The translations under genes were made by a program, and so were the position numbers. The notes beneath the pieces are model-generated. The model did no database searches. It was not told the origin of the DNA and was given only the letters and a program-made list of their open reading frames with translations. From positions 1 through 64,000 of IMG/VR virus record IMGVR_UViG_3300000271_000006: a DNA stretch of 64,000 nt, one strand, 5' to 3'. This document shows positions 1 through 32,284 of this stretch, in pieces. Positions within the stretch are counted from its first letter, which is position 1. Each line of letters starts with the position of its first letter. This DNA is from a virus.

Positions 1-480
1 GTGGAGTTCCAGCCCCTTGACCCCCTTGGCAATCAGGAGGTCAACGGCCTTGTTTGTGGCGGCGCCCGCCGTGGCTCCGTGGATTTGGGAGGGACGCGAA
101 GCGGAATGGCTGGCCGGCGCTGCGGCTTGGGCAGGCGGAGGAGTCGTTCCCTTGGATTGGTGGTAGACCTCCACGAACTGGAACTGGCCAGACTTGTTGA
201 CGTGAAGCTCTTGGGTTGTCTTCCCGTTGTACTCGTTCAACTTGGTGAACAAGCCCTGCCCGGCGGCATTCGCGTGAATGACAACGGTCTTCCCCTCCAT
301 CTTGGAAATGTCGGAGTGCTTCCAGACCACCAGCTTGATTTCGCCCGATGGGTCGGCAACAATCGCATTCTGGGGGGCACTAGGGTTGTCCTTCTTGGGA
401 TAGACCTTTTTGAGGGTCACGGAAACCTCGTCAACCGGAGATTCGGGCGGGAGGTTTTTTACATCACTGAGTTTCATCAT
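1..480 (-). CDS. OB-fold-like protein, possible ssDNA-binding protein (partial, runs off window start)
   Basis: Own translation of the minus strand from ATG 480 gives MMKLSDVKNLPPESPVDEVSVTLKKVYPKKDNPSAPQNAIVADPSGEIKLVVWKHSDISKMEGKTVVIHANAAGQGLFTKLNEYNGK..., open to nt 1. It is absent from the ORF track because there is no in-window stop. ATGA overlap with the stop of ORF 477..962. Function is guessed from the beta-rich N-domain plus Pro/Ala linker. Confidence 0.4.
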   Translation of the reverse strand, partial: MMKLSDVKNLPPESPVDEVSVTLKKVYPKKDNPSAPQNAIVADPSGEIKLVVWKHSDISKMEGKTVVIHANAAGQGLFTKLNEYNGKTTQELHVNKSGQFQFVEVYHQSKGTTPPPAQAAAPASHSASRPSQIHGATAGAATNKAVDLLIAKGVKGLELH

Positions 481-962
481 GTTGTTTTTGTTTCAGGTTC
501 AGGACTGAAATACTGGATCATACTCATGCTCCGCAAGCCCAAATGTCCAAGCAACGCCTTCTTTGGCTGTTTTTGTGGTCGGGGGCACGCGCAGGTGTTC
601 GTCCTTGGTCGCGATGCCGTAGCTCCGCCCCATTGGGCCGGTGCCTTGGCCGTTGAGTGCGCCGAACTTTCGGAGCGCCACGAGCGCAGCCCCCTTGCCG
701 CGTCGCCCAGCGGCTTTTCGATTGCACCGAACATGAAGACGATCGCATTGAGCGCCTGGGCCTGTGTCTTCGCCGCAACCCGAGGCGCCATGTCCTCGAG
801 CCAGGCGCGCACCCGTTCCTCGTTGGTCGAGTCGCGGTGGTTGCGCGCAACGAAGTCAATGAAGTCACGGGCGCGGGAGCAATATACAAGCTCCGTGTTG
901 TAGCTGAGGTGGCGGGTGCGGCAGACCGCCTGCATTCGGTTGATGATTTCTGACTTTGTCAT
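477..962 (-). CDS. Tyrosine-recombinase N-terminal SAM-like domain protein (IntI/XerD-type N-domain only, no catalytic domain)
   Basis: ORF track 477..992. ATG at 962 gives MTKSEIINRMQAVCRTRHLSYNTELVYCSRARDFIDFVARNHRDSTNEERVRAWLEDMAPRVAAKTQAQALNAIVFMFGAIEKPLGD, which fits the YS.RTE..Y..W...FI.F...E.V..FL..L...V...T..QAL.AL.F.Y pattern of integron-integrase/Xer N-domains. The remaining ~75 aa are low complexity, and no catalytic R..HxxR..Y region appears in any frame downstream. Confidence 0.5.
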   Translation of the reverse strand: MTKSEIINRMQAVCRTRHLSYNTELVYCSRARDFIDFVARNHRDSTNEERVRAWLEDMAPRVAAKTQAQALNAIVFMFGAIEKPLGDAARGLRSWRSESSAHSTAKAPAQWGGATASRPRTNTCACPRPQKQPKKALLGHLGLRSMSMIQYFSPEPETKTT

Positions 963-988
963 GATATAGGGGAAAATCGGCAGGATAA

Positions 989-1336
989 TCACTGGTTAGC
1001 CTTGGCGTGCGTGAGTCGGATAAAGACGATGCTCCCGGCCCCCTCGCCGATGTCCCACTCGTAGTGCCACGGCTCCCACGCTGCGTGCCACCAGTTGCCC
1101 TTGTCGGCCACATCCGCGACGAAGTCCGCGAGCTGATCATCTGGGGCATCACTGAGTCCGTGTAGCCACTGCGCCTCGGCCCAGAATCGTGCGACCTCGT
1201 CGCCCTTGATTTGCTCCGTCTTGTAGGACTCGCTGTCCGCGACGACAGCCAGGAGATCTAAACCGGCTAACCATGCGTCCACAGCCAACGCCGGGGATTG
1301 TCCGGCCGGCGATTGAGTTTCACTTTTCATCTCCAT
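989..1336 (-). CDS. hypothetical protein (accessory cassette ORF)
   Basis: ORF track, 115 aa. The ATG lies in the loop of structured repeat 1265..1395. The N-terminus MEMKSETQSPAGQSPALAVDAWLAG follows the leader pattern imposed by the repeat. Confidence 0.55.
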   Translation of the reverse strand: MEMKSETQSPAGQSPALAVDAWLAGLDLLAVVADSESYKTEQIKGDEVARFWAEAQWLHGLSDAPDDQLADFVADVADKGNWWHAAWEPWHYEWDIGEGAGSIVFIRLTHAKANQ

Positions 1337-1395
1337 AGAGTGCTGTCTTGAGGTTATTGGTTTTCGCCCGGCGTCGGCTGATACGCGGTGTTCTG
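1265..1395 (-). repeat. attC-like structured inverted repeat (copy 1)
   Basis: Gene-sense reading: CAGAAC-n9-CAGCCGACGCCGGG-[loop with ATG 1336]-CCCGGCGTTGGCTG-n10-GTTAGCC. 14-bp stem including one G.T. Confidence 0.65.
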
Positions 1396-1962
1396 CTGAT
1401 CGAGTTTCGCGAGGATCTGGCGCCCGAGAGCGTGCAGGTCGCTGAAGTATTTTTCGGAGTTGCGCCGCTCGTATTCGCGCTCAAAGACACGGCCGGACCA
1501 CTCTTCCCATCCGCGCGCAGAAATCACTTCGGACATCGCGCGGCAGTCGTCGTCGCTCGCCGGGTCGAACCCGTGTTCGGTGAAGTGGTCCACCTCGGCC
1601 TCGCACCCGTAGTTTGTGAGCGTGTTCGACAGCAGTTTTCCGCAGCCCTCGCAGAACGGCGTAGAGTCGCCCTCGTTACCCCAGCCCCCATCGACCAGCC
1701 ACTCGCCTTCGGGATCGGCCTGCTTGAGCTTCGCGATTTCCTTTTCCGCGCACTCGTAGCAGTAGCTTGTGCTCTCGTCGTGATCGCGATTGCTGCCGCA
1801 TATCCAGTGCTCCGGCGCAGCGGGCACGCGGGCCGCGCCTGCATCGAAGAGTTGCACCAGTCGTGCACGTTCGGCCTCAGACAACGGAGGCAGAACCAAG
1901 TGCCCAGAGCCAACAGGCACCGGCTGTCCGTTTTCGAGATTCATTTCAGTAGAGGAGATCAT
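1354..1962 (-). CDS. Cys-rich hypothetical protein (accessory cassette ORF)
   Basis: ORF track, 202 aa, with CYEC and CEGC pairs. ATGA overlap with 1959..2354. An alternative ATG at 1944 (MNLENG) lies inside the loop of repeat 1891..2004. Confidence 0.6.
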   Translation of the reverse strand: MISSTEMNLENGQPVPVGSGHLVLPPLSEAERARLVQLFDAGAARVPAAPEHWICGSNRDHDESTSYCYECAEKEIAKLKQADPEGEWLVDGGWGNEGDSTPFCEGCGKLLSNTLTNYGCEAEVDHFTEHGFDPASDDDCRAMSEVISARGWEEWSGRVFEREYERRNSEKYFSDLHALGRQILAKLDQQNTAYQPTPGENQ

Positions 1963-2004
1963 TGGATTTTCTGCGGTGCCTGCGGCTCATGCACGGCGTT
2001 CGGG
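1891..2004 (-). repeat. attC-like structured inverted repeat (copy 2)
   Basis: CCGAAC-n9-GAGCCGCAGGCACCG-[loop with ATG 1962/1944]-CGGTGCCTGTTGGCTC-n9-GGTTCTG. 5+9 bp stem. Confidence 0.7.
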
Positions 2005-2354
2005 CAAGAGGGCTCGACCATCTCGCAGGCGACCGCGAGGAGCACGACGGGCGAGTGGCCGTCATCGCTCATCTCCTTTGCCACGGGCAGCACGGTTTTG
2101 AGCACGTTATCAGAGCCCTCGTCTTCCATCAGCGCCTCGATTGCCGGGCGGATTTCACAGACCTTATCAGGCCATTTGTCGCCAAGCAGGCGCTTCACGC
2201 CGTCGCGCGTTTCAATGAGTTTCTCGGAGACACGGAGTGCCCGAACCAGTCCGCCAAAGCCAATTCCGGCCCGCGTGCCCGCGTCCGGCTGCTGCGTGTC
2301 ATGTCCCATATCAGTGTCCTTTCGTTTGGTTGTGATGGGCCGGAATCGGCTCAT
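1959..2354 (-). CDS. hypothetical protein (accessory cassette ORF)
   Basis: ORF track, 131 aa. The ATG at 2354 is part of the conserved GATGAGCC of repeat 2240..2368. An alternative ATG at 2309 (MGHDTQQ) lies in the repeat loop and may be the true start. Confidence 0.5.
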   Translation of the reverse strand: MSRFRPITTKRKDTDMGHDTQQPDAGTRAGIGFGGLVRALRVSEKLIETRDGVKRLLGDKWPDKVCEIRPAIEALMEDEGSDNVLKTVLPVAKEMSDDGHSPVVLLAVACEMVEPSCPNAVHEPQAPQKIQ

Positions 2355-2368
2355 CGGAATTGTTAGGC
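2240..2368 (-). repeat. attC-like structured inverted repeat (copy 3)
   Basis: GCCTAAC (its TAA is the stop of 2363..2692)-AATTCCGAT-GAGCCGATTCCGGCCC-[loop]-GGGCCGGAATTGGCTT-n9-GGTTCGGG. ~15 bp stem. Confidence 0.7.
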
Positions 2369-2692
2369 GCCGGACTCGCGGTTTGGGTCGTCGAGTCTTT
2401 TACGCAGCTCCAAAAGGGCGAAGCGGAGTTGGTTAGCCATGTATTCAGCCGCCGGGTTTTCTCCGTGCATCACCTCTACATCGCGGCTCATCTGCTCAAA
2501 GCGCAGCCACGTTTCTTCGAGGCGCTTGCGATAGCTCTCGGCGATCTTCTCCCAGTCCACAAATGCAGGCGGAACCGGGATGCGAGTCACCATCCCGCAG
2601 TGATAGCAGTCCATGTTTACGATCTGCATGGAGACCTTGGGCACGGTCGGAATAGCCGAGAGTGGATTATCGAATTTGTCGTAGTGTTGCAT
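2363..2692 (-). CDS. hypothetical protein (accessory cassette ORF)
   Basis: ORF track, 109 aa. Its TAA stop lies inside the GCCTAAC box of repeat 2240..2368. Confidence 0.6.
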   Translation of the reverse strand: MQHYDKFDNPLSAIPTVPKVSMQIVNMDCYHCGMVTRIPVPPAFVDWEKIAESYRKRLEETWLRFEQMSRDVEVMHGENPAAEYMANQLRFALLELRKRLDDPNRESGA

Positions 2693-2705
2693 CGTTAAAA
2701 TCGGA

Positions 2706-2773
2706 GCCTAACCAGCGATTACACACAACCTCCGGAGCTTCGCTCCTCCGGTGTGTGACCCGCGGTGTTAGCC
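2706..2773 (-). repeat. attC-like structured inverted repeat (copy 4, short loop)
   Basis: GGCTAAC (its TAA is the stop of 2768..2974)-n9-CACACACCGGAGGAGC-gaa-GCTCCGGAGGTTGTGTG-n9-GTTAGGC. Confidence 0.7.
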
Positions 2774-2974
2774 AAGACCGCGCTTTCGCATCTCTTGGCG
2801 AATCATATATTCGCGGGCTTTCGCTTCACTACCAGAGCATCCCCGCGCAAAGCGTAGAGCGTTTCTCAGGTGCTTCTCCGTGTGCTGCGAATACATATCG
2901 GGCTCGTCCCGAATGGACCGGGCTGCGTCTCGGTCGCGCCAGTCGGCACGTTTATCGTATCGGAATGCGGGCAT
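2768..2974 (-). CDS. hypothetical protein
   Basis: ORF track, 68 aa. The ATG is 7 nt after the GTTAGCC box of repeat 2982..3069, and the TAA stop lies inside the GGCTAAC box of repeat 2706..2773. Confidence 0.5.
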   Translation of the reverse strand: MPAFRYDKRADWRDRDAARSIRDEPDMYSQHTEKHLRNALRFARGCSGSEAKAREYMIRQEMRKRGLG

Positions 2975-2981
2975 AAAAAGA

Positions 2982-3069
2982 GGCTAACAAGTAGATGGAG
3001 CCAAGCCGGATACCTGTCACGGCGAGCGAGAACCGCCGTCCTCCGGCTGGTTCATTATGGTGTTTCGCC
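2982..3069 (-). repeat. attC-like structured inverted repeat (copy 5)
   Basis: GGCGAAAC..-GAACCAGCCGGA-[loop]-TCCGGCTTGGCTC-CATCTACTT-GTTAGCC. One mismatch plus one bulge. It ends 7 nt before ATG 2974. Confidence 0.55.
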
Positions 3070-3159
3070 ATCCAACCAAGCAACAACTTGGTAGACGAGT
3101 ACGAGAAAGAGGAAAACGCAAACAAAGGCAGCGGTCTCAAAGGCTTCAATTGGTTTCAT
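3055..3159 (-). CDS. 34-aa single-pass membrane micro-protein
   Basis: Own translation: MKPIEAFETAAFVCVFLFLVLVYQVVAWLDGETP. ATGA overlap with the upstream 58-aa ORF. Below the ORF-track size cut-off. Confidence 0.4.
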   Translation of the reverse strand: MKPIEAFETAAFVCVFLFLVLVYQVVAWLDGETP

Positions 3160-3332
3160 GGCTTGGTATGGTTTGCGGCAAAGCCCGCGAGCTTGTCAAT
3201 TTGTTTCTTGGTGAGGACAACGGAGCAGTATTCTCCGGTTGGGCGCGAAACGGTCAAAAGGAACTCTCCCCTGCCTGCTGGCGCGGCTTCTAGGGCCGAT
3301 TCCTTGCCTTTTAAGACAATTATGTCAGTCAT
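3156..3332 (-). CDS. hypothetical protein (58 aa)
   Basis: Own translation: MTDIIVLKGKESALEAAPAGRGEFLLTVSRPTGEYCSVVLTKKQIDKLAGFAANHTKP. Overlaps neighbours at both ends (coupled operon). Confidence 0.45.
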   Translation of the reverse strand: MTDIIVLKGKESALEAAPAGRGEFLLTVSRPTGEYCSVVLTKKQIDKLAGFAANHTKP

Positions 3333-3546
3333 GGGGGTTAGTCCTTACCCTTCGCTTCCGGCCTTCAGTAAAAGCCTCTTCTTGGGCCGCGTCAAGGCGG
3401 TTCCGATCGAGGGCAGAAGGCTTTTTCTCACTACCCGCGAGCAGCAATGCCTCGATCTCGGCTTCTGAGCGGTCGGGCGGGGCTTGGTTCATGCGGACAA
3501 CGGCAGCGTAATCCAGTTGAGATATTTCGACCCGACCTTTCGGCAT
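3325..3546 (-). CDS. hypothetical protein
   Basis: ORF track 3325..3600. Internal ATG 3546 (MPKGRVEISQLDY...) preferred because it reduces the overlap with 3489..3689. Start uncertain. Confidence 0.45.
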   Translation of the reverse strand: MPKGRVEISQLDYAAVVRMNQAPPDRSEAEIEALLLAGSEKKPSALDRNRLDAAQEEAFTEGRKRRVRTNPHD

Positions 3547-3689
3547 CCATGGTCGTTTGCTACGTCCTCGGGGATTCGCGCGAGGGTTTCGGCGTTCCAT
3601 ATCTTGTCGAGCAAATCTGAAACGAGTCGGGATTCAGATGCGGTTTCAGACTGGAGGCGAATACGGTCAGCTTCGATTTTTATTTTCAT
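3489..3689 (-). CDS. hypothetical protein
   Basis: ORF track 3489..3818. ATG 3689 (MKIKIEADRIRLQ...) makes an ATGA overlap with 3686..3877. It overlaps the next ORF by ~57 nt, so one of the two calls may be wrong. Confidence 0.4.
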   Translation of the reverse strand: MKIKIEADRIRLQSETASESRLVSDLLDKIWNAETLARIPEDVANDHGCRKVGSKYLNWITLPLSA

Positions 3690-3877
3690 GCGGTTGCCTT
3701 TGCGGTTGCGAGTCCTAGGCCAACGTAAGGACGGCTTGACTTGGGGCCTTGGATTGCGCGAACCATTATGCCCGCATGGCGCATGGTCAAGACTAGTTTT
3801 TCCTGAACTAACCAGCAAGCCCTTTCATAGTTGGTTAGCTTGCTCCAGTTGGCCGGTAGTTTGGCTGGGTCGATCAT
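3686..3877 (-). CDS. hypothetical protein
   Basis: ORF track, 63 aa; coupled to the downstream ORF. Confidence 0.5.
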   Translation of the reverse strand: MIDPAKLPANWSKLTNYERACWLVQEKLVLTMRHAGIMVRAIQGPKSSRPYVGLGLATAKATA

Positions 3878-3880
3878 GGG

Positions 3881-4078
3881 TTAGGTTGAAATAAAGCGGT
3901 ATCTGCCTTTTTTGCGATCCCAAGCAACGCCAACGTAGGCCTTTTGTTGACCTTCCTTCATGCGCGAGATGGTTCCGTCTTCGTTGAATAGAGGCGGAGG
4001 GTTTCCGACAAAGAACCGCTCGACAACCTTCCCTAACGCGGGAAGGGTCGGGGCTGTTGCGAGAACTAGGGCTTTCAT
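3881..4078 (-). CDS. hypothetical protein
   Basis: ORF track, 65 aa (MKALVLATAPTLPALGKVVERFF...). Confidence 0.55.
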   Translation of the reverse strand: MKALVLATAPTLPALGKVVERFFVGNPPPLFNEDGTISRMKEGQQKAYVGVAWDRKKGRYRFIST

Positions 4079-4088
4079 TGTGATGCGT

Positions 4089-4238
4089 CTATGGCTTTTT
4101 GATGGGCTTGGGTTGGATTGCGAGCTTGCTTTCTAGCTCGCGAATGCGAGCTAGGGCAAAGAAGTAGTTTTCTTGGATTAAGGTTAGTTGGGCCTAAAGG
4201 TCGGCAATGACTAGGGCTTGGCGTTCGGTTGGGGTCAT
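4089..4238 (-). pseudogene. 49-codon coiled-coil-like ORF interrupted by an in-frame TAG (4194..4196)
   Basis: Own translation: MTPTERQALVIADL-TAG-AQLTLIQENYFFALARIRELESKLAIQPKPIKKP-TAG. There is no alternative start after the TAG, and the ORF fills an otherwise unexplained 150-nt gap in a packed operon. Confidence 0.4.
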
Positions 4239-4240
4239 GA

Positions 4241-4480
4241 CTATGCTTTGTTATGCGCGAGCCATGCAGGATCGGAAGTTGTGGCGGAAGGGTCTGAGTC
4301 CTGCCCGAAAGAGTAGCCGGCGCAGTAAGCCTCATCCCAGCCAGGCAATGGAGTGCCGTTAGCGTCTCTGTGCGCGGGTAGGGCCGTGGAAAGCCTCCGG
4401 TCGATGCCCTTGGCTTTATTGAGGCGTCCGTCATGGTATCCCCAGTTGAAGCGGACCCTCTCAGGGAATTTCGGTGTCAT
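4241..4480 (-). CDS. hypothetical protein
   Basis: ORF track 4241..4630. ATG 4480 (MTPKFPERVRFNWGYHDG...) makes an ATGA overlap with the upstream micro-ORF. Confidence 0.55.
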   Translation of the reverse strand: MTPKFPERVRFNWGYHDGRLNKAKGIDRRLSTALPAHRDANGTPLPGWDEAYCAGYSFGQDSDPSATTSDPAWLAHNKA

Positions 4481-4608
4481 GACGCAACCTCCTTTACGAG
4501 TAGGGCGAGGCCTGCGGCAAAGGCAAGGCCAAGAATTGGGCTGACAAGCCACGCGAGGCAGACCCATGCAAGGCCAAGGATTGCGAGGGGAAAGAGGAAA
4601 TCGTTCAT
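4477..4608 (-). CDS. 43-aa hydrophobic membrane micro-protein
   Basis: Own translation: MNDFLFPLAILGLAWVCLAWLVSPILGLAFAAGLALLVKEVAS. ATGA overlaps at both ends. Confidence 0.45.
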   Translation of the reverse strand: MNDFLFPLAILGLAWVCLAWLVSPILGLAFAAGLALLVKEVAS

Positions 4609-4907
4609 GGCTGGCCTTCCGCTTTGGCAATGGCTTCGGTGAGGTCGCGAAGCACTACCTCGGCCGCGATGGTTCCGCTTTGCAGCCCCTCGGCGCGCAG
4701 TCGAAGCAGCAGGGCCTCGACCGCCTCAACCGAGTTTTGACAAGCCGTCAGTAAATCCGGCGCGGATGAAAACAAGGCAGCATTGCGGTTTGCGGCCCCC
4801 TCCGTAGGGAAGTAGCACTCGACTACTCCGTTGTTTGCAAGGCATGAGTGCATTTCCCTGCCTTCGCTTTCGTTTGCATAACTACGAGATGCGAGTAAGT
4901 GCTTCAT
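4605..4907 (-). CDS. hypothetical protein (APDLL-motif family)
   Basis: ORF track, 100 aa. Contains ...NAALFSSAPDLLTACQNSVEAVEALL..., a pattern shared with 6080..6397. Confidence 0.6.
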   Translation of the reverse strand: MKHLLASRSYANESEGREMHSCLANNGVVECYFPTEGAANRNAALFSSAPDLLTACQNSVEAVEALLLRLRAEGLQSGTIAAEVVLRDLTEAIAKAEGQP

Positions 4908-5005
4908 TTGGTTTCGGTGTCAATGGTTTCTGAGTTGTGGCCCAGGACTAGAACGGCAAAAGCCGCGCAAGCCATGCACCAGAGGAAAAGGAGGGCGTTT
5001 TTCAT
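4904..5005 (-). CDS. 33-aa signal/anchor-like micro-protein
   Basis: Own translation: MKNALLFLWCMACAAFAVLVLGHNSETIDTETK. ATGA overlap with 4605..4907. Confidence 0.4.
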   Translation of the reverse strand: MKNALLFLWCMACAAFAVLVLGHNSETIDTETK

Positions 5006-5011
5006 GGAAGG

Positions 5012-5200
5012 TTACTTCGTGTCGCAGTAGGCTTGGAAGGAGACTTTGCCCTTGAGGTAGAGGGCGGCGGCATGGGCCTTGGTGAGTGAAAATCCGTAGT
5101 CCTCTTGAGCGGACTGCATGAGCCTCCAGAATGGCGCGCGCTTGGCCGCTTTTTTGGCGTCCTTGAGGTTCCCGTTGATGAGGTCGCGAATGGCTTTCAT
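5012..5200 (-). CDS. hypothetical protein
   Basis: ORF track 5012..5371. ATG 5200 (MKAIRDLINGNLKDAKKAAKR...) preferred, because the upstream part is Pro/Ala/Thr low complexity. Confidence 0.5.
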   Translation of the reverse strand: MKAIRDLINGNLKDAKKAAKRAPFWRLMQSAQEDYGFSLTKAHAAALYLKGKVSFQAYCDTK

Positions 5201-5219
5201 GGCTGCATGGGGTTGGGGG

Positions 5220-5642
5220 TTAAAAGCAAACGGCAATGCCGCGGTTGTAGAAGCGGCCAATGGGCTCGCCGGCCGGGATGTCGGATTTGCGCCCAAGGTA
5301 GAGCGCGCAACCCCTGGGGTCGGTCTGCACGTAGGCCCAAAGGTCGGGGAATCCGGCCATGATGGCAGCAAGGCGCCTCTTGGCTCCGGCTTCCTTGTCG
5401 GGAATGGGCCTGCGATAGCTTTTGCCCGTATGGGGATGGGTCACGAGGTAGGGCTTGCCCGTTGCTTCGTCGCGTTCAATCGACCATGAAGCGTAGTCGT
5501 TCCCATCCCCGCATTCCAGTTCATGCCAGCGATGCAGAGCCATTTCAATCCTGCGAAGTCGCTGGGCCGTCGAGTAGTCAATTCCGAGCCGTTCCATCGC
5601 GGAAAAAAAGCGGATGGCGTTTTGTGTGCGTGAGTTGCTCAT
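5220..5642 (-). CDS. hypothetical protein
   Basis: ORF track, 140 aa, protein-like composition (…LHRWHELECGDGNDYASWSIERDEATGKPYLV…). Confidence 0.65.
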   Translation of the reverse strand: MSNSRTQNAIRFFSAMERLGIDYSTAQRLRRIEMALHRWHELECGDGNDYASWSIERDEATGKPYLVTHPHTGKSYRRPIPDKEAGAKRRLAAIMAGFPDLWAYVQTDPRGCALYLGRKSDIPAGEPIGRFYNRGIAVCF

Positions 5643-5687
5643 AGTAAAAGCCGTTTAACGTCTGGCGCCGACGATTTGGTTTTGGGT

Positions 5688-5801
5688 TTACTGACTGAGA
5701 GAGCGTCGCAGAAGGCTGGCGAGAGCCTCTGCGAGTCTGGGGAAACCGTTGGCTTGCGCGGACTGAATGGCAAGCGCAATGCGTAGCTGGTCGGAGGTCA
5801 T
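5688..5801 (-). CDS. hypothetical micro-protein (37 aa)
   Basis: Own translation: MTSDQLRIALAIQSAQANGFPRLAEALASLLRRSLSQ. It fills the gap between 5811..6074 and 5220..5642. Confidence 0.3.
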   Translation of the reverse strand: MTSDQLRIALAIQSAQANGFPRLAEALASLLRRSLSQ

Positions 5802-5810
5802 TAGGGGAGA

Positions 5811-6074
5811 TTATGCGCTGCGGCCATAGAGGCGAACCATTGCCTGCTTCCATTCGTCCGCAAATGCTGCGCAGCGTTCGGTTGCGGCAAACCGGGTCAG
5901 CTCTCCGCCCTCAAAGTCTGCGATGGCGTAGGCTTTCCCGTCAATCGCGCAAACCAGCTGGCACTGAATCCAGCGCTCACCATCCGCAGTCGTGAAGTCT
6001 CCGCCCTTATGGGATAGGAAACCCGTATCCCGGAAAGGAAGGGCATCGGCAAGATAGGAGTGATTTTCATTCAT
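5811..6074 (-). CDS. hypothetical protein
   Basis: ORF track, 87 aa. Confidence 0.6.
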   Translation of the reverse strand: MNENHSYLADALPFRDTGFLSHKGGDFTTADGERWIQCQLVCAIDGKAYAIADFEGGELTRFAATERCAAFADEWKQAMVRLYGRSA

Positions 6075-6079
6075 GGGCG

Positions 6080-6397
6080 TTAAGCGTTAAGGGTTGGGTT
6101 GGTTGCGCCGAGCTTGGCCAGCGTTGCTCTTGCCTGCATGATGGCAGAAAGGAGTTCGGTTGCAATGGGATGGCGGGAAGTCTTTTCGTATGCTGCGTCA
6201 ATGGCCTGAAGGGCCTGTAGTAGGTCGGGGGATGCCAGCAGCAAATTGCCGTTGTTTTCGTTTTCGCCCTCAACGGCTGCGTGATGCTGAACTTGCTTGG
6301 CGATTACGAATCCCGAGCAATCGGAAATTTTCCAGCCATCGGTAAGGGATACGTCTTTCCGCCAAGGAAGAAATGAGGGGAGCGTGAGCGGTTTCAT
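6080..6397 (-). CDS. hypothetical protein (APDLL-motif family), first gene of an early-left sub-operon
   Basis: ORF track, 105 aa. Contains ...NLLLASPDLLQALQAIDAAYE.... It is preceded by the ORF-free regulatory region. Confidence 0.6.
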   Translation of the reverse strand: MKPLTLPSFLPWRKDVSLTDGWKISDCSGFVIAKQVQHHAAVEGENENNGNLLLASPDLLQALQAIDAAYEKTSRHPIATELLSAIMQARATLAKLGATNPTLNA

Positions 6398-6509
6398 GGG
6401 AATGAGTCGGTTTGAGTCGGTTTTTCGGCCGCATCAGTGCCGCCGATGAAAGGACCGTGCGCAATTTCCCGCATCCCGGCAAGCATTTCTCCAAAAAAAG
6501 ATTCACAGA

Positions 6510-6537
6510 CTACGCAAACCTACGCATTGGCAACGCA
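6510..6537. promoter_or_regulatory. three phased direct repeats (C)TACGCA, operator/iteron-like
   Basis: CTACGCAaacCTACGCAttggcAACGCA, with 10-12 bp periodicity, ~115-140 nt upstream of the ATG 6397 operon. A tandem TGAGTCGGTT x2 also lies at 6403..6420. Confidence 0.3.
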
Positions 6538-7546
6538 TTAAGCCTAATTATTCATTTCAACTCATCCCGTTGAGTAAACCTGCTTTCGCGGCAAGCCAAC
6601 GCTGCGCTCTCGCATTGCGTACCGTTTCGCGCCCTCCCCAAACAACCACCGTCCTACCAAGAAAGAAGAGCCGTCGCCACCAAGAGAGAGCCCATGGGAC
6701 TAAGGGAATGCTAGGGGGCAGCGAGCGTTAGCGAGCTGGTGAGGGAATGCGGTTGCCCGGTGGGCCAGGCCTTTGCCTCGCATGGCCGTGTCTCTGCGGG
6801 AACGCGGAGCAGGGCTTAAGGGTGGTACTTTCTGAGACTATATCTCAATAGCCAAGCCAAACAAAGTTAGGTGAGACTAACTTTCCTACCCAACCCTAAG
6901 CACTGCAAGCCCTTAGCTCTACCGAGGTAGGGCCAAACCCAGCATCCTGCCGGCCCGATCCCGGGTCAAAGCAGGCCAGGCAAGTCCCTTGCGGTCTCAA
7001 TTGGGTAGGGGTTATGTTAGGATTCCGGCATTATTGCCATTCTGGCCGGTGGGGACTTCCCATATCCTAACGTTTTCCACGGTCCACAAGGTACCTTATG
7101 TCTAGTCAACTGTTAGCTTTAGGGTTGGATAAGACTATTAGGCTATGCTAAGGATCTTAGTCTAGGCTAATTCTGCCGCCGGACTGGCAGCTACCGACCA
7201 CCGGGGGTACCCCCACCCCCGCTTCTGGGGGCCTACGTCAAAAATGGGTACCCACCACCCTGAGGCACGTGAAGACTGGTTGCTCGGTAGTTTGAGGGCC
7301 AATAGACCCTCACGCCCATGAGCAATTGCTTTATGGATATTTCATGGCCAAGGCCCCACCACTCCCTTTAAGGGTTGGGGGATTAGGGGCCTATGGGTCT
7401 AAGTTGGCCCCTAAAAATTTTTTTGGGTGGTTTGGGGTTTGGGGGATGGCCGGAAGTGGGCTTTACGTGGCTTATACGGGGCTTTTGTGGCTTGGGGTAG
7501 GCTGGGGTAGGGGTTTGGCCTTAAAGGCCCGTAAAAGGCAAGGAAA

Positions 7547-7583
7547 GGGCAAAAGAAAAGGCCTACCCGGTTAAAGGTAGGCC
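7547..7583 (-). terminator. intrinsic terminator after gene 7676..8194
   Basis: Minus strand: GGCCTACC-TTTAACCG-GGTAGGCC followed by TTTTCTTTTG. Confidence 0.55.
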
Positions 7584-7675
7584 GTGGGGAGTTTGGGGCT
7601 TGGTGTGGTGGTTGGCTTACTTAATCAGATGGCTGATGTATTCGATGAGGTAGGGGGTTGGCGCGAAAGGTCTTC

Positions 7676-8194
7676 TTATTGCGACTTGATCTCAGTTTGG
7701 ATTTTCTTGATGAGGGCCTCAAGGTTGCCTACTCGCTCTTCAAGGGTCTTGGGGGTGGGGCCGGGGAGGGGCGGCAAGGTAGCTTCACCCGCGCACCATT
7801 TGTAAACCTGCTCCCAGAAGTCGTGCCCTTGGGGGGACGCCGCCCAATCAAACGCACCGAGCAGGGCATCCGCTACGTCAGACGAGGTGGTCAAATTGAG
7901 CGATCCCTCATCGAAGTTCTTGATGGCGAGGTCGCGGTAGCCGTCCGGAAGCTCCATGAGCCAGTCCTTGATGGTCTTGGGCTTGGCGGGTTCTTCCTTT
8001 TTGGGGAGGAAGTGGCCGGAGGCGATCTTGGGTTTGGCGATGCGGTAAAAGTACACGCCCCAAGACCATGATGGGTTAGGGTTGGGGTCATAGCCTTTGC
8101 CGAAAAGGCTATACTCCACCGGCTTGCCTTCCTTTGCGGCCTGCATTACGGCGATCTTGTAGTCCAGGCTGTCTTCGTATTCGTGGATATTCAT
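7676..8194 (-). CDS. hypothetical protein
   Basis: ORF track, 172 aa. Contains the GAFDWAASPQGHDFWEQVY motif. Followed by an intrinsic terminator at 7547..7583. Confidence 0.65.
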   Translation of the reverse strand: MNIHEYEDSLDYKIAVMQAAKEGKPVEYSLFGKGYDPNPNPSWSWGVYFYRIAKPKIASGHFLPKKEEPAKPKTIKDWLMELPDGYRDLAIKNFDEGSLNLTTSSDVADALLGAFDWAASPQGHDFWEQVYKWCAGEATLPPLPGPTPKTLEERVGNLEALIKKIQTEIKSQ

Positions 8195-8206
8195 TTGGTT
8201 TGTTAC

Positions 8207-8255
8207 TTGAGACTAAGTCTCATTACTTTTGAGTATTTGAGACTAAGCCTCATTA
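8207..8255. promoter_or_regulatory. two copies of a 19-nt repeat containing the palindrome TGAGACTaAGTCTCA
   Basis: TTGAGACTAAGTCTCATTA (8207..8225) and TTGAGACTAAGCCTCATTA (8237..8255), between and overlapping genes 8243..8521 and 7676..8194. TGAGACTA half-sites also occur at 6833 and 6872. Confidence 0.4.
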
Positions 8256-8521
8256 GTATTGTTGTGGTTTATGGCTTCGTCGGGGAGGCCGTAATCTTTA
8301 GGGTTGGGCCGGTAGTCGAGCCCAAACATTAGCGCCCAAATGGCATCTGCCCGCATGAAGCAGTAGCTGGCTACGTTGGGCTGGCCGTCCAGCTTGGCGT
8401 AGTACCCTGCCACCTGAAGGGCGACCGCGATTTTTGTAAGGGAGGGTTGCTGGAACTTGATCCAAGCCTTCTTGTACCAAGGAATCTCGGCGATGGCATT
8501 CTGTGCTTCTAGTAGGGTCAT
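8243..8521 (-). CDS. hypothetical protein
   Basis: ORF track 8243..8626. ATG 8521 (MTLLEAQNAIAEIPWYKK...) makes an ATGA overlap with 8518..8727. Confidence 0.55.
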   Translation of the reverse strand: MTLLEAQNAIAEIPWYKKAWIKFQQPSLTKIAVALQVAGYYAKLDGQPNVASYCFMRADAIWALMFGLDYRPNPKDYGLPDEAINHNNTNEA

Positions 8522-8727
8522 GCTAATTTGGGTTCGTGGGTAAATTGCCTTTTGCAGGTTTCGCAGCGCCAGACTGCGGGAATCGTTTGGCAGTTGGCAA
8601 GCACAATCCGGCAATCTTCCGCACAATAGGGACAGTCAGGCTTGTTGTCGTTGAGGTAGTCCCGCCGCGCAATCAGTTCATCAACGATGCGCCGGGCCTC
8701 CCTGTCCATGTGGCTGAAGTCTTTCAC
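8518..8727 (-). CDS. zinc-ribbon-like small protein
   Basis: ORF track, 69 aa, with CPYC...C...CETC spacing. Confidence 0.6.
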   Translation of the reverse strand: MKDFSHMDREARRIVDELIARRDYLNDNKPDCPYCAEDCRIVLANCQTIPAVWRCETCKRQFTHEPKLA

Positions 8728-9032
8728 CGTGTCTCGTAGAGCAGGATCAGTCTTTCGGCCCGATCAACCAAGGGAAGTCGGGATTTTAGGCTAGTAGAGT
8801 CTCTAATACCAAGCATAATGGATTCTACTGAGTCTGATCCAAGCCTCGGCAAATATCCGGCAAGTATGAGGTTTCGTATTTCCCATAGCCGGTGGAGTAG
8901 TTTTTCAAGGTATTCCGTCACGACCCATTCCTCCGAGTCAATCGAGTAGGCTTCTCCGCAATCCTCACAGTAAAACCCGCCAAGAACGAGCTGGCGGTTG
9001 CGATGGGTGCAGTATTCCGGGTTAAGCCTCAA
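8724..9032 (-). CDS. hypothetical protein
   Basis: ORF track, 102 aa; ATGA overlap downstream. Confidence 0.6.
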   Translation of the reverse strand: MRLNPEYCTHRNRQLVLGGFYCEDCGEAYSIDSEEWVVTEYLEKLLHRLWEIRNLILAGYLPRLGSDSVESIMLGIRDSTSLKSRLPLVDRAERLILLYETR

Positions 9033-9348
9033 CCGAGTAGTCGGTCGCGTCGTTTAGCGACTGAGGGCCAAAATAAAGGACCATCCTGATCCATGGCCCA
9101 TCCTCGCCATCCCCCTCGTCCTTGAGGACGGTAAGCCCGCCCGTGCTGTTTACTCTATTCCCGCGCTTGGCGGAATCTTCCATCATGTCAATGGCTTGGG
9201 TAATCATTTCGCCGATGGAAGGCACGCGCATTTCACCATCCATAAACCACTCCCAGTTGGTTGCCACCATCATCTTGTGGGCCTCTTCCCAGTCAAAAAT
9301 AGCAACGACTTCCTTGATCTGCTTCTTGATTGCTTGGTCTTTAGTCAT
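9022..9348 (-). CDS. hypothetical protein
   Basis: ORF track 9022..9618. ATG 9348 (MTKDQAIKKQIKEVVAIFDWEEAHK...) preferred. Confidence 0.6.
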   Translation of the reverse strand: MTKDQAIKKQIKEVVAIFDWEEAHKMMVATNWEWFMDGEMRVPSIGEMITQAIDMMEDSAKRGNRVNSTGGLTVLKDEGDGEDGPWIRMVLYFGPQSLNDATDYSVEA

Positions 9349-9688
9349 GGCGATGTGATTTGAATTCGCGAGTGCCGACAAACCATAGCTTGCTCTTGGG
9401 TATTCGGTTGGGTGTGCGGTATTCCGCCATCCACCAGTTTTCCTTCCCTTTGTGGGTATGGTCAAGTGGTACGGCAACGTTTGACCAGCAACACCAAAGG
9501 TCCCATGACTGAGGCTTTTGATGGGTTGCCGATAAAGCCCACGAGACGGTGGGGTAGCGCGAAAAGCAGATGTAGGACGGGTTCCATTGCCCACAAACAG
9601 ACTTCTTGCCCGGCACAAGCCCGTACTTTTTGATGGATGCCCGATTTTTGCTTGGGCTCCAGTGGTAGAGCATAAAAGGCCTAGTCAT
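9341..9688 (-). CDS. hypothetical protein
   Basis: ORF track, 115 aa. The N-terminal LYHWSPSKNRASIKKYGLVPGKK loosely recalls Tpt1/ART-fold openings, but this is too weak to call. Confidence 0.55.
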   Translation of the reverse strand: MTRPFMLYHWSPSKNRASIKKYGLVPGKKSVCGQWNPSYICFSRYPTVSWALSATHQKPQSWDLWCCWSNVAVPLDHTHKGKENWWMAEYRTPNRIPKSKLWFVGTREFKSHRHD

Positions 9689-9783
9689 GCGCCAAATGCC
9701 ATTAGTCCAAGCACAATTGCGGTAACGTAGTTTCCTTCAAGTAAATGAAGGAAGGCAAGAAAGAAGGCAATTAGTTCAATCAT
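9685..9783 (-). CDS. 32-aa hydrophobic micro-protein
   Basis: Own translation: MIELIAFFLAFLHLLEGNYVTAIVLGLMAFGA. ATGA overlap with 9341..9688. Confidence 0.4.
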   Translation of the reverse strand: MIELIAFFLAFLHLLEGNYVTAIVLGLMAFGA

Positions 9784-9907
9784 GGCGCTTGGGTTTCTTA
9801 TCTTTTCGGTCGATTAGGATGGAGAGGCCGTAGAGGATGGAAGGGGCGGTTATGACGGCAAGCGTCACGACCCCAACGAAAAACGACGTTGCCTCCCATT
9901 TATTCAT
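9776..9907 (-). CDS. 43-aa single-pass membrane protein
   Basis: ORF track 9776..9967. ATG 9907 (MNKWEATSFFVGVVTLAVITAPSILYGLSILIDRKDKKPKRHD) makes an ATGA overlap with 9904..10461. Confidence 0.45.
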   Translation of the reverse strand: MNKWEATSFFVGVVTLAVITAPSILYGLSILIDRKDKKPKRHD

Positions 9908-10461
9908 GGCTTCTTTTGAAGGAGAAAGGAGGACCAAGCGCAGGTTGTCAAGCCGGTAAGCTCCCAATCAGATTCTAGGCAGAAGTCTTCAACGGCCTCG
10001 ATTACGCCGAATCCCGCCTGCCGGCACCAGCCATTGTCAATGAAGTCGTGGCCCATAAGCCAGCCAGTGGGTTTGACGACCCTTGACCATGCGCGGAGGT
10101 CTTCCAGCACATGCTCATAGCTGTGGTTCGCGTCGATGTAGGCAAAGTCCAAGGAGCCTTGGGGAAGGCGCGAAGCCGCTTCCAATGATGTCATGCGGTG
10201 AATCTTGGCTCGGTAGTAGCCACCAAAGAGACCGAGGACGTAGCGGTAGTTCTCGTCCTGCGCACCTTGGGGCACGTTGGCCGGGTCGCCGTCATAGCCG
10301 GAATCAAAGTGGACCCAAGGGTCAACGAGGTGGAGAAGCTCAACCTGGGTTTCGTGGAAGATTTCCTTGGAGAACTCGCCTCGCTGAACTCCAATCTCGG
10401 CTCCTACGGCCCCGCTTGGCAATGCCTTGACCATGGCAACCCTGTCGGCAAAGTACCTCAT
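9904..10461 (-). CDS. class I SAM-dependent methyltransferase (Methyltransf_24-like)
   Basis: ORF track, 185 aa. Motif I-like GAEIGVQRGEFS and the DFAYIDANHSYEHVLEDL signature are typical of this O-methyltransferase-like family. Confidence 0.75.
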   Translation of the reverse strand: MRYFADRVAMVKALPSGAVGAEIGVQRGEFSKEIFHETQVELLHLVDPWVHFDSGYDGDPANVPQGAQDENYRYVLGLFGGYYRAKIHRMTSLEAASRLPQGSLDFAYIDANHSYEHVLEDLRAWSRVVKPTGWLMGHDFIDNGWCRQAGFGVIEAVEDFCLESDWELTGLTTCAWSSFLLQKKP

Positions 10462-11027
10462 TTGATTTTTCCTTTGCTAGCCTTGAAAAGCAGGTTCTTT
10501 ACGTGCCAATAGACGGTAATGCCGATGGATCGCCACCACAAATGGCGGACCTTCATGCCCTCAAACTTGGGCTTGCAGCCAAAGCGGTAGCAGTAGGAGA
10601 TGGGTTCGCCGCCGATGCGGGACCAGCGCCGGAAGACGTTGCCGGTCGGGTCCCCTTGGTCAACGTGCGCCCAATTGCCAATTTCAATGTCGCAGACCTT
10701 GGGTTTGCCGACAATGAACCAGTCGTCAAATTGGTTGTTCCGCGAATCCCCCTTCCATGTGAGGACGTACTTGCCCTTGGGGAGGCAGGTGAAGTTTGAG
10801 AGGGCGTTCCCTCGGTTGCGATTTGCCCCATCCACGCAATCCTCCCGCCCGCCTACGACGTAAAAGGAGTCAAAGGTTACGTTCTCACATTGATGGATTT
10901 TGCAGGTATCGTCCCAAGACAGGGGCTTAAACCCAATTGCAATTGGGTCAAGATGCTCGCCGACGATCTTGGAACCGGGTTCAAGCCGGGAGTAGGACTT
11001 GTAGTTAACGTCTATCTTGTTGCTCAT
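10458..11027 (-). CDS. hypothetical protein
   Basis: ORF track, 189 aa; ATGA overlaps at both ends. Confidence 0.65.
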   Translation of the reverse strand: MSNKIDVNYKSYSRLEPGSKIVGEHLDPIAIGFKPLSWDDTCKIHQCENVTFDSFYVVGGREDCVDGANRNRGNALSNFTCLPKGKYVLTWKGDSRNNQFDDWFIVGKPKVCDIEIGNWAHVDQGDPTGNVFRRWSRIGGEPISYCYRFGCKPKFEGMKVRHLWWRSIGITVYWHVKNLLFKASKGKIK

Positions 11028-13684: not shown

Positions 13685-13738
13685 AGAGTGTTGGATTGAG
13701 TGAGAGCCCGGCCCGCGTGGCTCAGCCTTGGATGTTAT
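13614..13738 (-). repeat. attC-like structured inverted repeat (copy 6)
   Basis: GAGCCACGCGGGCCG-[loop with ATG 13684]-CGGCCCGCGTTGGTCTC-TGGCGATTT-GTTGGGC. 15 bp with two bulges. The stop of 13722..14051 lies at the 5' arm junction. Confidence 0.7.
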
Positions 13739-14051: not shown

Positions 14052-14061
14052 ACAAAAGAAA

Positions 14062-14464: not shown

Positions 14465-14492
14465 TTGGATTTCGTGAGGTTCTTTTTCGGAG

Positions 14493-14916: not shown

Positions 14917-14946
14917 TGTGTTTTCGTGAGGTTAAAATTCGCTCCA

Positions 14947-32243: not shown

Positions 32244-32284
32244 GGCGAACATCCGGGATTAGGGACGCGCCGGTACTGCCTCCC

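Follow-up and report, generated by a model that had tools for sequence, protein, structure and literature searches.

Five putative attC-bounded cassettes beside a truncated integron integrase gene in a phage-like genome

Clusters of attC sites lacking an integron integrase (CALINs) were defined by Cury et al. 2016 (PMC4889954), and intI remnants were found near 15 of the 279 CALINs in that study (PMC4889954). Phage-borne integrons and CALINs are also already known from the work of Qi et al. 2023 (PMC9892861), in which the complete phage integrons are captured pieces of host chromosomes or of class 1 integrons, the CALINs have a minimum of two attC sites (three in TJE1), and the cassettes of TJE1 and PH101 follow an arrangement called most typical of bacterial arrays (PMC9892861). 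Here we describe a window of 64 kb, by which we mean the whole stretch of DNA analysed, where positions 699-3069 of the minus strand very probably represent an integron remnant within the leftward early operon of a phage-like genome. Read along this coding strand, the locus consists of cassettes G, F, E, D and C (295-608 nt), an attI-cassette junction and codons 1-88 of intI. It resembles a CALIN in having at least two attC sites within 4 kb, no functional intI, an adjoining intI remnant, and cassettes of 0.3-0.6 kb with one ORF of unknown function each. Unlike the CALINs of Cury et al., the array lies in a phage-like genome and retains attI, its ORFs occupy the attC bottom strand and read toward intI, and what remains of intI is the N-terminal domain, whereas IntegronFinder seeks the C-terminal part. 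The locus shares with those of Qi et al. the presence of attC sites and integron components within phage genomes, as well as DNA methyltransferase cassettes, found here in two relatives of the window (L014 and L003); it differs from them in its 18 strong and two weak attC sites in five clusters, in an integrase set with a shared conserved attI, and in ORFs that are inverted with respect to attC. The phage nature of the window is itself an inference for which the primase-helicase gene, the collagen-like fibre genes and the related IMG/VR contigs serve as context only, and a PHROGs search of the window gave almost no matches.

An earlier note on this DNA listed five copies of a repeated element at these positions, all of which exist, except that the fourth begins at 1890 and not at 1891. 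We searched for them with a covariance model, R2, derived from 76 attC sites of other contigs and containing no sequence from the window. R2 matched all five over their full length on the minus strand: E01 of cassette C (1265-1396, 132 nt; 33.6 bits, E = 7e-6), E02 of cassette D (1890-2004, 115 nt; 40 bits, E = 2e-7), E03 of cassette E (2240-2368, 129 nt; 27.6 bits, E = 2e-4), E04 of cassette F (2706-2773, 68 nt; 27 bits, E = 3e-4, with a DNA fold z of -3.8) and E05 of cassette G at the distal end of the array (2982-3069, 87-88 nt; 30.9 bits, E = 3e-5). The opposite strand reached no more than 11 bits where it scored at all (10 bits for E01). The scores of E03 and E04 are modest (27 bits), and the E-values are rough because the calibration was short. 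The same model detects 13 additional sites elsewhere in the window, the nearest beyond E05 lying no closer than 13613, and all sites follow the local coding direction. A second model, R1, built from the window's own elements, matched every one of the six class 1 attC sites in a P1-borne integron (MH445380) at full length and on the bottom strand only (23-37 bits, E 5e-8 to 5e-4), and its bulged T aligned with the classical extrahelical T of these sites. The likeness that the earlier note saw between the opening of E03 and the start of class 1 attC sites holds up: GCCTAACAATTC is present there on the minus strand, and the aadA1 and aadA2 attC sites of MH445380 begin with GTCTAACAATTC, a match at 11 of 12 positions.

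Across the 76 related sites, pairing holds in 94% of cells, and 18 of 20 pairs have changed on both sides; none of 500 shuffles equalled this pairing, and slid controls were only 24-44% paired. E02 is predicted to fold into an R helix, an internal loop (9x10) and an L stem whose 3' arm carries a single bulged base; E01 also has the L stem, and the bulged base is absent from E01 and E03. Like the class 1 attC sites or 59-base elements (aadA1, aadA2, cmlA1), the window sites run from a (G/T)AAC box through 9 nt, xAGCC, a stem, GGCTx and 9-10 nt to a GTT box, have a single extrahelical T on the strand matched by the model, and are 57-132 nt long. They differ from class 1 sites in lacking a clear counterpart of the second classical extrahelical base (G), in a larger internal loop between the R and L boxes (9x9-10), in the start codon contained in many of their loops, and in that the strand matched is the one that codes for the cassette ORF, not its complement.

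In all five pairs of the array the 3' box of one element is complementary at 7/7 positions to the 5' box of the next: GTTAGCC of E05 to GGCTAAC of E04, GTTAGGC of E04 to GCCTAAC of E03, GTTCGGG of E03 to CCCGAAC of E02, GTTCTGC of E02 to GCAGAAC of E01, and GTTAGCC of E01 to GGCTAAC at the attI junction. Over the whole window this is true of 14 of 16 pairs, whereas the 5' and 3' boxes inside one element match at only 4-6 of 7 positions (mean 4.95/7). Perfection between elements combined with mismatch within them is, as judged from the boxes, the register shift typical of integrated cassettes. This signature is not sufficient on its own to establish site polarity, which rests on the strand preference of the model, the position of the bulge and the attI half-site. 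Because of the cross-detection with real class 1 attC sites and this signature of cassette ends, we conclude that the five repeats are, on sequence criteria, genuine attC (integron recombination) sites delimiting five small gene cassettes.

The attI-cassette junction (965..1001, minus strand) reads GGCTAAC-CAGTGATTATCC-TGCCGATTTTCC, with the predicted crossover before the final C of the first box, between 996 and 995. It ends 2 nt short of the intI ATG, its conserved core (995-1001) is abutted by the last cassette, and R2 finds no full attC there. The attI core, (G/T)AAC-A/C-N3-ATTATCC, is kept 5' of intI in about 17 viral loci, with similarity beginning at AAC, and in four contigs the attI-intI segment is 96-100% identical while the sequence upstream is unrelated (different cassettes), the break again falling at AAC. 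At least 22 viral contigs with a common conserved attI make up the set to which the integrase of the window belongs. This site had not been recognised in the earlier note, nor had the true left arms of two elements or the inversion of the sites relative to the ORFs.

Downstream, ORF 477..962 had been described as an N-terminal SAM-like domain without a catalytic domain, and profile searches bear out both statements: PF13495 (Phage_int_SAM_4) matches aa 7-82 with E = 1.1e-14, PF02899 stays below the cut-off (E = 0.03) and PF00589 is absent. A related phage-like contig, L001, carries an IntI-type gene with one frameshift; when this is bridged, the product aligns along its whole length, the IntI-specific insertion included, with 2A3V, the structure of the Vibrio integron integrase (E = 4.5e-60). 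In a tblastn search, the reconstructed 324-aa L001 IntI matched the window through aa 1-88 only (962 to 702, 60% identity, E = 4e-27). The search suggested by the earlier note for catalytic remnants found none in any frame, the rest of the 64 kb giving no tblastn match to L001 IntI. The intI remnant (699..962, minus strand; codons 1-88) has the GC1/2/3 pattern of real coding sequence (0.60/0.42/0.78). The rest of the ORF (477..698, minus strand), which had been taken for a low-complexity tail, is instead an out-of-frame reading of two gene remnants, both in the frame of ORF 499..681. At ~590-720 lies an internal piece (about aa 25-67) of a protein family of ~130 aa, 69-81% identical to P0004-P0007, and at ~499-600 a match to the C-terminal end of DUF6745 (E = 9e-11). 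Decay of intI is also seen in the two closest relatives, as the frameshift of L001 and as a 5' truncation in L003. The suggestion of a decayed intI next to an array without an integrase is thus supported by the identity to L001, the attI core, the attC cross-detection, the register shift and the lack of catalytic remnants, and we interpret 699-962 as the start of a decayed intI adjoining the cassette array.

Placing the cassette ends at the predicted crossovers between AA and C gives, on the minus strand, cassette C at 996..1390 (395 nt; ORF 989..1336, 115 aa), D at 1391..1998 (608 nt; ORF 1354..1962, 202 aa, cysteine-rich and of unknown function), E at 1999..2362 (364 nt; ORF 1959..2354), F at 2363..2767 (405 nt; ORF 2363..2692) and G at 2768..3062 (295 nt; ORF 2768..2974). 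The TAA stops of ORFs F and G coincide with the crossover; ORFs C, D and E overrun it by 7-40 nt (7 nt for ORF C), which is untidy for self-contained cassettes. E01 and E02 cover about the last 40 nt of the upstream ORF, and E01, E02 and E03 overlap the first 24-38 codons of the downstream one. The start codon of three cassettes out of the five lies in the attC loop, so that attC would encode an N-terminal extension of 24-38 aa, although use of these in-loop starts is inferred. The ATG of ORF C (1336) is within the E01 loop, and E03 contains ATG codons at 2354 and 2309, the latter preceded by AAGGA. ORF C has the coding GC1/2/3 signature and no Pfam or PHROG match, and belongs to no known family. 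ORF D has 551 homologues at E < 1e-3, and the homology spans aa ~25-188 of the query, precisely the part between the two attC sites; the same cargo recurs as a cassette with the same layout in L106-L108, beside an IntI-type gene that is called there in one piece (347 aa) and shares only 36% identity with the L001 protein. A homologue of ORF E in L015/L016, which has its own ATG and no attC, likewise aligns solely to aa 38-114, the part of the ORF bounded by the two attC sites.

Assignment of the genes to the minus strand rests on the GC1/2/3 signature and on the homologues of ORFs D and E. By these calls the cassette ORFs are on the attC bottom strand, opposite to ordinary bacterial integrons (29 top and 9 bottom in chromosomal integrons, 4 top and 24 bottom in phage; Fisher p = 1e-6). 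Since the ORFs occupy the strand matching the recombinogenic bottom strand of classical attC sites, each attC precedes its ORF in the coding direction. The cassette genes read toward intI and would be read as part of the phage operon, expression from which is inferred.

We propose that an integron integrase inserted every cassette in circular form, recombining the folded single strand of the cassette attC hairpin with attI and exchanging strands at the A-C step of the (G/T)AAC box. Exchange at this point would explain why the 3' box of each attC finds its exact complement at the far end of the same cassette. Subsequently, a deletion or rearrangement may have removed intI beyond codon 88 and fused it to fragments of two genes; with the gene lost past this codon, the copy encodes no recombinase, and the array would be frozen unless IntI were supplied in trans. 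The identity and polarity of the sites, the cassette ends, the attI junction and the truncation can be read from the sequence; the recombination history is inferred from sequence alone, recombination itself never having been observed. Presence/absence polymorphism of the five cassettes cannot be demonstrated because this phage is represented by a single genome (L002 is identical).

It is possible, if doubtful, that the array is still mobile, with an intact IntI acting in trans from the phage genome outside the window, from a co-infecting relative or from a host chromosomal integron. The phage-derived model scores equally high (up to 50 bits) on arrays beside chromosomal intI genes, mostly in Verrucomicrobiota MAGs, so that hosts may carry a compatible integrase; furthermore, related viral contigs contain uninterrupted full-length intI, and IntI enzymes accept diverse attC sites (PMC9892861; PMC4889954). 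However, neither the 64-kb window nor 2.6 kb beyond it (in L002) contains intI, the 30 largest ORFs yield no other recombinase, the host is unknown, and activity cannot be shown from the present data. We consider it improbable that the 88-aa domain is a functional, co-opted stand-alone protein that binds folded attC hairpins and would serve, for example, in hairpin regulation or ssDNA protection, its truncation being adaptive and not decay. This idea, raised in the earlier note, is not excluded: the 88-codon stretch is undamaged and retains its ATG and the attI/upstream region, GC3 is strongly coding (0.78), the ORF stays open across 161 codons, and an identical protein occurs in an independent Logan assembly. 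Yet the other 73 codons come from reading two unrelated gene fragments in the wrong frame, and in the two sister contigs intI has decayed in other ways. Moreover, just three among 5.8 billion proteins match ORF 477..962, with no stand-alone N-domain family emerging: the window's own product, P0002 (the frameshifted full-length L001 gene, 261 aa as called) and an ENA protein of 164 aa, encoded on a 1.6-kb contig and similar to an IntI with an internal deletion.

The repeats might also be phage regulatory hairpins (terminators, translational operators or promoter-stem-loop modules) or a miniature transposon, their proximity to an integrase fragment being coincidental. We find this scarcely credible, even though copies sit at gene junctions, always along transcription, many loops hold start codons within the conserved AAAACTCTATG, and several copies fold no more stably than shuffled versions, z lying between -0.9 and +0.6 for some. 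No T-run follows the stems, box spacing and sequence agree with real class 1 attC sites, and selection for pairing would have maximised complementarity within elements, whereas it is perfect only between neighbours. The same family occurs in arrays beside intI in dozens of bacterial and viral contigs, and neither target-site duplications nor terminal inverted repeats other than the attC boxes were seen. Cross-detection with class 1 attC, the intI-adjacent arrays and the box complementarity between neighbours contradict both forms of this explanation.

As an integron remnant, the locus may be compared with the sedentary chromosomal integrons of Verrucomicrobiota and other environmental bacteria, which have the same type of attC (model scores up to 50 bits) upstream of intI and on its coding strand. 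This canonical geometry, with sites 5' of intI on the intI coding strand, occurs in some 10 viral contigs as well as in many chromosomal integrons of Verrucomicrobiota. In contrast to the window, cassette ORFs of the sedentary integrons are mostly on the top strand and divergent from intI (29 of 38 called), and their integrases share only 44-52% identity with the L001 protein. A shared direction of intI and cassette ORFs also characterises the 'inverted-integrase' integrons of Treponema and Planctomycetes type, reportedly described by Boucher et al. in 2007 and Nemergut et al. in 2008. In that type the array lies downstream of intI and the relation of attC to ORF is the usual one, a layout that we found in Planctomycetota and Acidobacteriota loci; the phage array, unlike these, is upstream of intI, and it is the ORFs and not intI that are flipped with respect to attC. 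Many of the attC loops carry start codons, placed inside a conserved AAAACTCTATG.

We identify a decayed phage-borne integron at positions 699-3069, comprising a truncated IntI gene, an attI site and a set of attC sites, which confirms the observation in the earlier note and supports the first of its two readings, a decayed intI beside a cassette array. The integrase remnant (699-962, minus strand) corresponds to the first 88 intI codons within ORF 477..962. This ORF had been thought to encode only an N-terminal SAM-like domain, and profile searches bear this out, with a match to PF13495 at E = 1.1e-14 and none to PF00589. No catalytic-domain remnant was found in any frame of the window, and a tblastn search of the window with the IntI of the related contig L001, its frameshift bridged, returned a sole match (962->702). 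The additional domain specific to IntI, located near the C-terminus, which in L001 reads ERKYPNAGREWPWFWVFP...DPRSG..RRHH and aligns with 2A3V, is likewise absent from the window. Homology to IntI is nevertheless established for the N-terminal domain, which is 60% identical to aa 1-88 of its closest relative, the L001 IntI (P0002), and ∼40% identical to the products of 16 other viral IntI genes; searched alone against the PDB it gave only a borderline match (2A3V, E = 0.048). The bridged L001 protein (324 aa) aligns end-to-end with VchIntIA (2A3V, E = 4.5e-60), including the integron-specific insertion. The intI of ORF 477..962 is a remnant, not a working member of this family.

The “low-complexity tail” previously assigned to ORF 477..962 did not survive inspection, being the wrong frame of gene debris. 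Below ∼700 another frame stays open to 499, and the debris (499-720, minus strand) consists of an internal fragment of a ∼130-aa protein family (69-81% identity to proteins P0004-P0007) followed, in the same frame, by the C-terminal end of a DUF6745-like protein. The ∼130-aa-family fragment reads FVFGSNYAGRHGKGAAL...GRSYGIATK. Sister contigs are damaged in other ways: the L001 intI is frameshifted, and in L003, a 38.5-kb IMG/VR contig, intI is reduced to aa 102-324 (5224-6096) and joined in frame, just past an attC site, to a C5-methyltransferase-like N-terminus (LLDLFCGVGGWS).

Starting from the five copies recognised by the earlier reader, an nhmmer profile found additional copies of the repeat element, always in the orientation of the local genes, and hand curation yielded 16 copies of 57-132 nt. 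In the coding direction, an element opens with a 7-nt box ending in AAC and an 8-10-nt spacer, continues with xAGCC and a stem arm, a variable loop of 13-90 nt, and a second arm with (T)TGGCTC, and closes with a 9-10-nt spacer and a 7-nt box starting with GTT. When folded as single-stranded DNA, most copies form an outer helix of 5-7 bp, a large internal loop and a bulged inner stem, the bulge in most copies being a single base on the 3′ arm. An attC site is defined by imperfect inverted repeats, with outer R boxes carrying the invariant AAC...GTT and inner L boxes, and by a fold in which an R helix is followed by an unpaired central spacer and then by an L stem, with one or more extrahelical bases on one strand, that ends in a variable terminal structure, over a length of ∼57-141 nt. 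The array elements E01-E05 (1265-1396, 1890-2004, 2240-2368, 2706-2773 and 2982-3069, minus strand) all have a 5′ end of nnnnAAC, a 3′ end of GTTnnnn and inner arms of the form xAGCC.../...GGCTx, and the AAC and GTT are invariant in alignments A1 and A2. Their lengths (68-132 nt) also fit, and DNA folding recovered the attC layout for most sites. Of the 18 sites in the window, 13 carry a 3′-arm bulge of one base (T) or more; E02, E04 and E05 are among them, and E01 and E03 lack it. Only some boxes, such as GCCTAAC and GTTAGGC, fit the strict RYYYAAC / GTTRRRY consensus exactly, others (GGCTAAC, CCCGAAC, GTTCTGC, GTTAGCC) being one or two positions off; real class 1 attC sites in L024 also depart from it (e.g. 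GTACAAC, GTTGGGC). The resemblance of the E03 opening to class 1 attC sites, proposed in the earlier note, is confirmed, as the top strand of real sites opens with GTCTAACAATTC, a match at 11 of 12 positions.

Several other ways of reading or finding these elements were considered. A strict RYYYAAC...GTTRRRY regular expression recovered one element only and was thus too strict; CTAAC/GTTAG was not enriched window-wide (60 observed against ∼105 expected), and GCCTAAC alone occurs at chance level. A promoter reading was set aside, the spacing of TTGGCTC-N-GGTT, judged by eye, fitting neither the sigma-54 nor the sigma-70 consensus. A shared N-terminal peptide was discounted too: two different reading frames run through the motif and several of its copies do not code, which places the conservation at the DNA level. 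Readings of the elements as terminators, MITEs or REP sequences were also rejected.

The register of the boxes links the elements to one another as expected of an integron array, in which each attC takes its crossover-side box from the cassette next to it and the two ends of a cassette are therefore complementary. All five pairs of the E01-E05 array accordingly show 7/7 complementarity between the 3′ box of one element and the 5′ box that follows it downstream, the last pair being formed by the E01 3′ box and GGCTAAC at 995-1001; window-wide, 14 of 16 adjacent pairs do so. Within single elements, complementarity averages 4.95/7 and is mostly 4-6/7. Placing the crossover between the A and C of the 5′ box delimits cassettes G (2768-3062, 295 nt), F (2363-2767, 405 nt), E (1999-2362, 364 nt), D (1391-1998, 608 nt) and C (996-1390, 395 nt). 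The TAA stops of ORFs F (2363..2692) and G (2768..2974) coincide exactly with the crossover, and ORFs C (989..1336), D (1354..1962) and E (1959..2354) overrun it by 7, 37 and 40 nt, respectively. Recombination of E01-E05 by an integron integrase is inferred from sequence and remains putative, with indirect support from the different cassettes that adjoin an identical attI-intI in L011, L012, L014 and L015.

Recognition by covariance models was reciprocal. Model R1, built from 12 window elements in the coding direction with trimmed loops, was applied to the class 1 integron of the P1 isolate MH445380, where each of the six annotated cassette ends was matched over its full length (23-37 bits, E 5e-8 to 5e-4). 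These matches fall on the strand opposite the resistance genes, the top strand of the same sites scoring 7-9 bits, and the bulged T of the model lines up with the classical extrahelical T on the bottom strand of the aadA1 attC. By sequence and structure alike, the elements of the window are therefore attC sites, whose bottom strand corresponds to the coding strand of the phage. R1 did not detect the Vibrio-type attC sites in MK672802, so its specificity is for the attC type of the window and that of class 1 integrons. R1 also located arrays in ∼10 IntI-carrying IMG/VR contigs and many chromosomal integrons, chiefly of Verrucomicrobiota. In alignment A3, made from 76 external sites found by R1 with all window sites excluded, 94% of cells are paired and two-sided changes occur in 18 of 20 pairs; none of 500 shuffles reached this and slid controls were 24-44% paired, with the caveat that A3 was aligned by fitting it to the model. 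From A3 came model R2, which finds E01-E05 and recovered the hand-curated window coordinates exactly; it detected 18 sites at E <= 3e-4, every one in the direction of the local genes. With its trimmed loops, R1 had handled long-loop sites of the window badly, a defect cured by the R2 rebuild.

At the intI end of the array (attI-cassette junction 965..1001), the core AAC-A/C-N3-ATTATCC lies directly upstream of the ATG and is common to the window and ∼17 viral loci, with similarity starting at the AAC. Four viral loci (L011, L012, L014 and L015) are 96-100% identical from the AAC into intI and have unrelated sequence upstream, implying different cassettes at one attI with the break at the predicted crossover. 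Polarity is fixed by the half-site at the intI 5′ end together with the strand preference of the model and the bulge position. The integron platform, with attI at the 5′ end of intI and the attC bottom strand on the intI coding strand, is thus present but its intI is truncated, so the locus is best described as a decayed integron, that is, a CALIN plus attI and delta-intI.

The region is transcribed from the minus strand in the order 2768..2974, 2363..2692, 1959..2354, 1354..1962, 989..1336 and 477..962. The codon-position GC of these ORFs (GC3 of 0.71-0.78 exceeding GC1, which exceeds GC2; weaker in ORF G, at 0.59) follows that of bona fide genes such as the primase-helicase and is missing from long plus-strand ORFs, and homologues of ORFs D and E are read in the minus-strand frame. 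In classical integrons, cassette ORFs share the orientation of the attC top strand, and the Pc promoter drives their transcription away from intI. The present array departs from this arrangement, with each of its five ORFs on the bottom strand and pointing to intI. In chromosomal arrays with the same attC type the better ORF was on the top strand in 29 cases, the bottom strand in 9 and ambiguous in 8, whereas the viral relatives gave 4, 11 and 3, and none of the 13 window cassette ORFs is on the top strand (Fisher p = 1e-6, chromosomal versus phage). Start codons lie inside the loops of E01, E02 and E03, at 1336, 1962 and 2309/2354, often within AAAACTCTATG. This string is conserved, without a Shine-Dalgarno sequence, around the in-loop starts of E01, E06, E10, E12 and E16 (e.g. 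1336-1346, 21395-21405 and 32317-32327); short attC sites have instead an ATG after a T-rich leader, 7-13 nt beyond the 3′ box.

ORF D has 551 homologues, and the similarity covers aa ∼25-188, exactly the inter-attC stretch; native homologues begin with MLT(Q/E)EE at ORF D residue 26, and those with native starts (L109-L111) lack attC. Similarly, the ORF E homologue in contig L016 aligns with the inter-attC body only. The closest ORF D homologue, P0008, is a cassette of the same layout, third from the attI of an IntI-type integrase that shares only 36% identity with the L001 protein; the cassettes beside it are unrelated to those of the window. In L106, a 120-kb contig (JGI 3300043445; locus 8303-8582), a cassette D homologue occurs together with an IntI-related integrase gene (PF13495 and PF00589); mraZ, a bacterial cell-division gene, lies ∼2 kb downstream. 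The L106 copy may therefore belong to a prophage or a chromosomal element, and could point to a host.

Integrons are familiar as systems with which bacteria capture genes, and the phage examples of which we are aware are captured fragments or clusters of a few sites. The present genome differs in scale, with ∼20 attC sites in five clusters, a wrecked integrase of its own and an attI in one phage-like genome. In phage genomes, Qi et al. 2023 (PMC9892861) described three complete integrons, one In0 and 17 CALINs, and they demonstrated recombination of phage attC sites by IntI1; CALINs were defined by Cury et al. 2016 (PMC4889954), who noted intI pseudogenes near some of them. The integron described here belongs with these, and is set apart by its scale, by an integrase lineage and attI of its own, and by the orientation of its ORFs. 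The same platform occurs in at least 22 related viral contigs with different cassettes at an identical attI, which suggests, on sequence comparison alone, that integron recombination may be a regular source of phage mosaicism in this group.

Inverted genes and in-loop start codons are not expected from bacterial integrons and bear on the question of cassette genesis, as do the two cargo families that occur as ordinary genes and also fused to attC in cassettes, the breakpoints falling exactly at the attC boxes. The attC type shared with chromosomal integrons of Verrucomicrobiota hints that the host belongs to this phylum, and that the cassette pools of host and phage may interact. We would entertain only as a tentative and rather doubtful proposal that phages of one lineage, whose hosts are probably Verrucomicrobiota, operate an integron system of their own in which the cassettes are back to front. 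The gene would then lie on the recombinogenic strand with the attC hairpin at its 5′ end, where the hairpin would supply the start codon and a short N-terminal leader, so that one element would act as a recombination site in DNA and a translation-initiation module in mRNA, and small accessory, possibly counter-defence, genes would be shuffled among phages. If true, the phage cassette pool would be separate from the host integron pool despite the common attC type, and the precise fusion of attC arms to phage genes of the ORF D and E families would be cassette genesis caught in progress.

The whole window looks like phage, with a Toprim/DnaB primase-helicase, collagen-like fibre genes and many small ORFs, and gene directions diverge from ∼16 kb. 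A PHROGs search with 20 window proteins gave three matches only, all to families of unknown function, a DNA search of GenBank phages with window positions 1-8000 gave no match, Pfam found nothing in the cassette ORFs, and no other recombinase was found among the 30 largest window ORFs. Logan contig L002 is identical to window positions 1-10962 and reaches 2.6 kb further, into genes for an RNA ligase and a PD-(D/E)XK protein. The ORF at 11613-12251 (minus strand) matches PF18909, the N-terminal domain of a MazZ-like dATP/dGTP diphosphohydrolase (E = 1e-20), a gene type associated with phages that substitute 2-aminoadenine for adenine. The Toprim and DnaB-like primase-helicase (22937-25855, plus strand) has a match to LAGLIDADG_3 at aa 598-648, suggestive of an inserted intein or homing endonuclease. 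Long collagen-like genes with Gly-X-Y repeats at 42716-47760 and 52146-54400, presumably tail fibres, dominate direct-repeat output.

Beyond the array, 13 more strong and two weak attC sites fall in four clusters (13613-15003, 21360-21809, 32284-32394 and 36858-39751). Their bottom strand is always the coding strand, and their neighbouring boxes are register-shifted too, at 7/7. Self-complementarity reaches 7/7 in the sites at 36858-36957, 14493-14583 and 21691-21809; the former two break register with the next downstream site and the last ends its cluster. Two nearly identical 57-nt mini-attC sites lie in different arrays (14947-15003, minus strand, and 37209-37265, plus strand); they score 15.6 and 10.2 bits with R2, and the register-shift test validated both. 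Among relatives, L014 has a full-length intI, and the cassette beside its attI (9243-9956) carries, on the attC bottom strand, a gene for an N6/N4 DNA methylase; the upstream DnaB and DUF1376 genes place this integron between replication genes and the genes after intI. Verrucomicrobiota MAGs (L033, L055, L067, L031, L049, L075, L086, L046, L072 and L097) have chromosomal integrons whose arrays are of this attC type and reach scores of up to 50 bits under the phage-derived model, and loci from Planctomycetota and Acidobacteriota have an inverted-intI arrangement instead.
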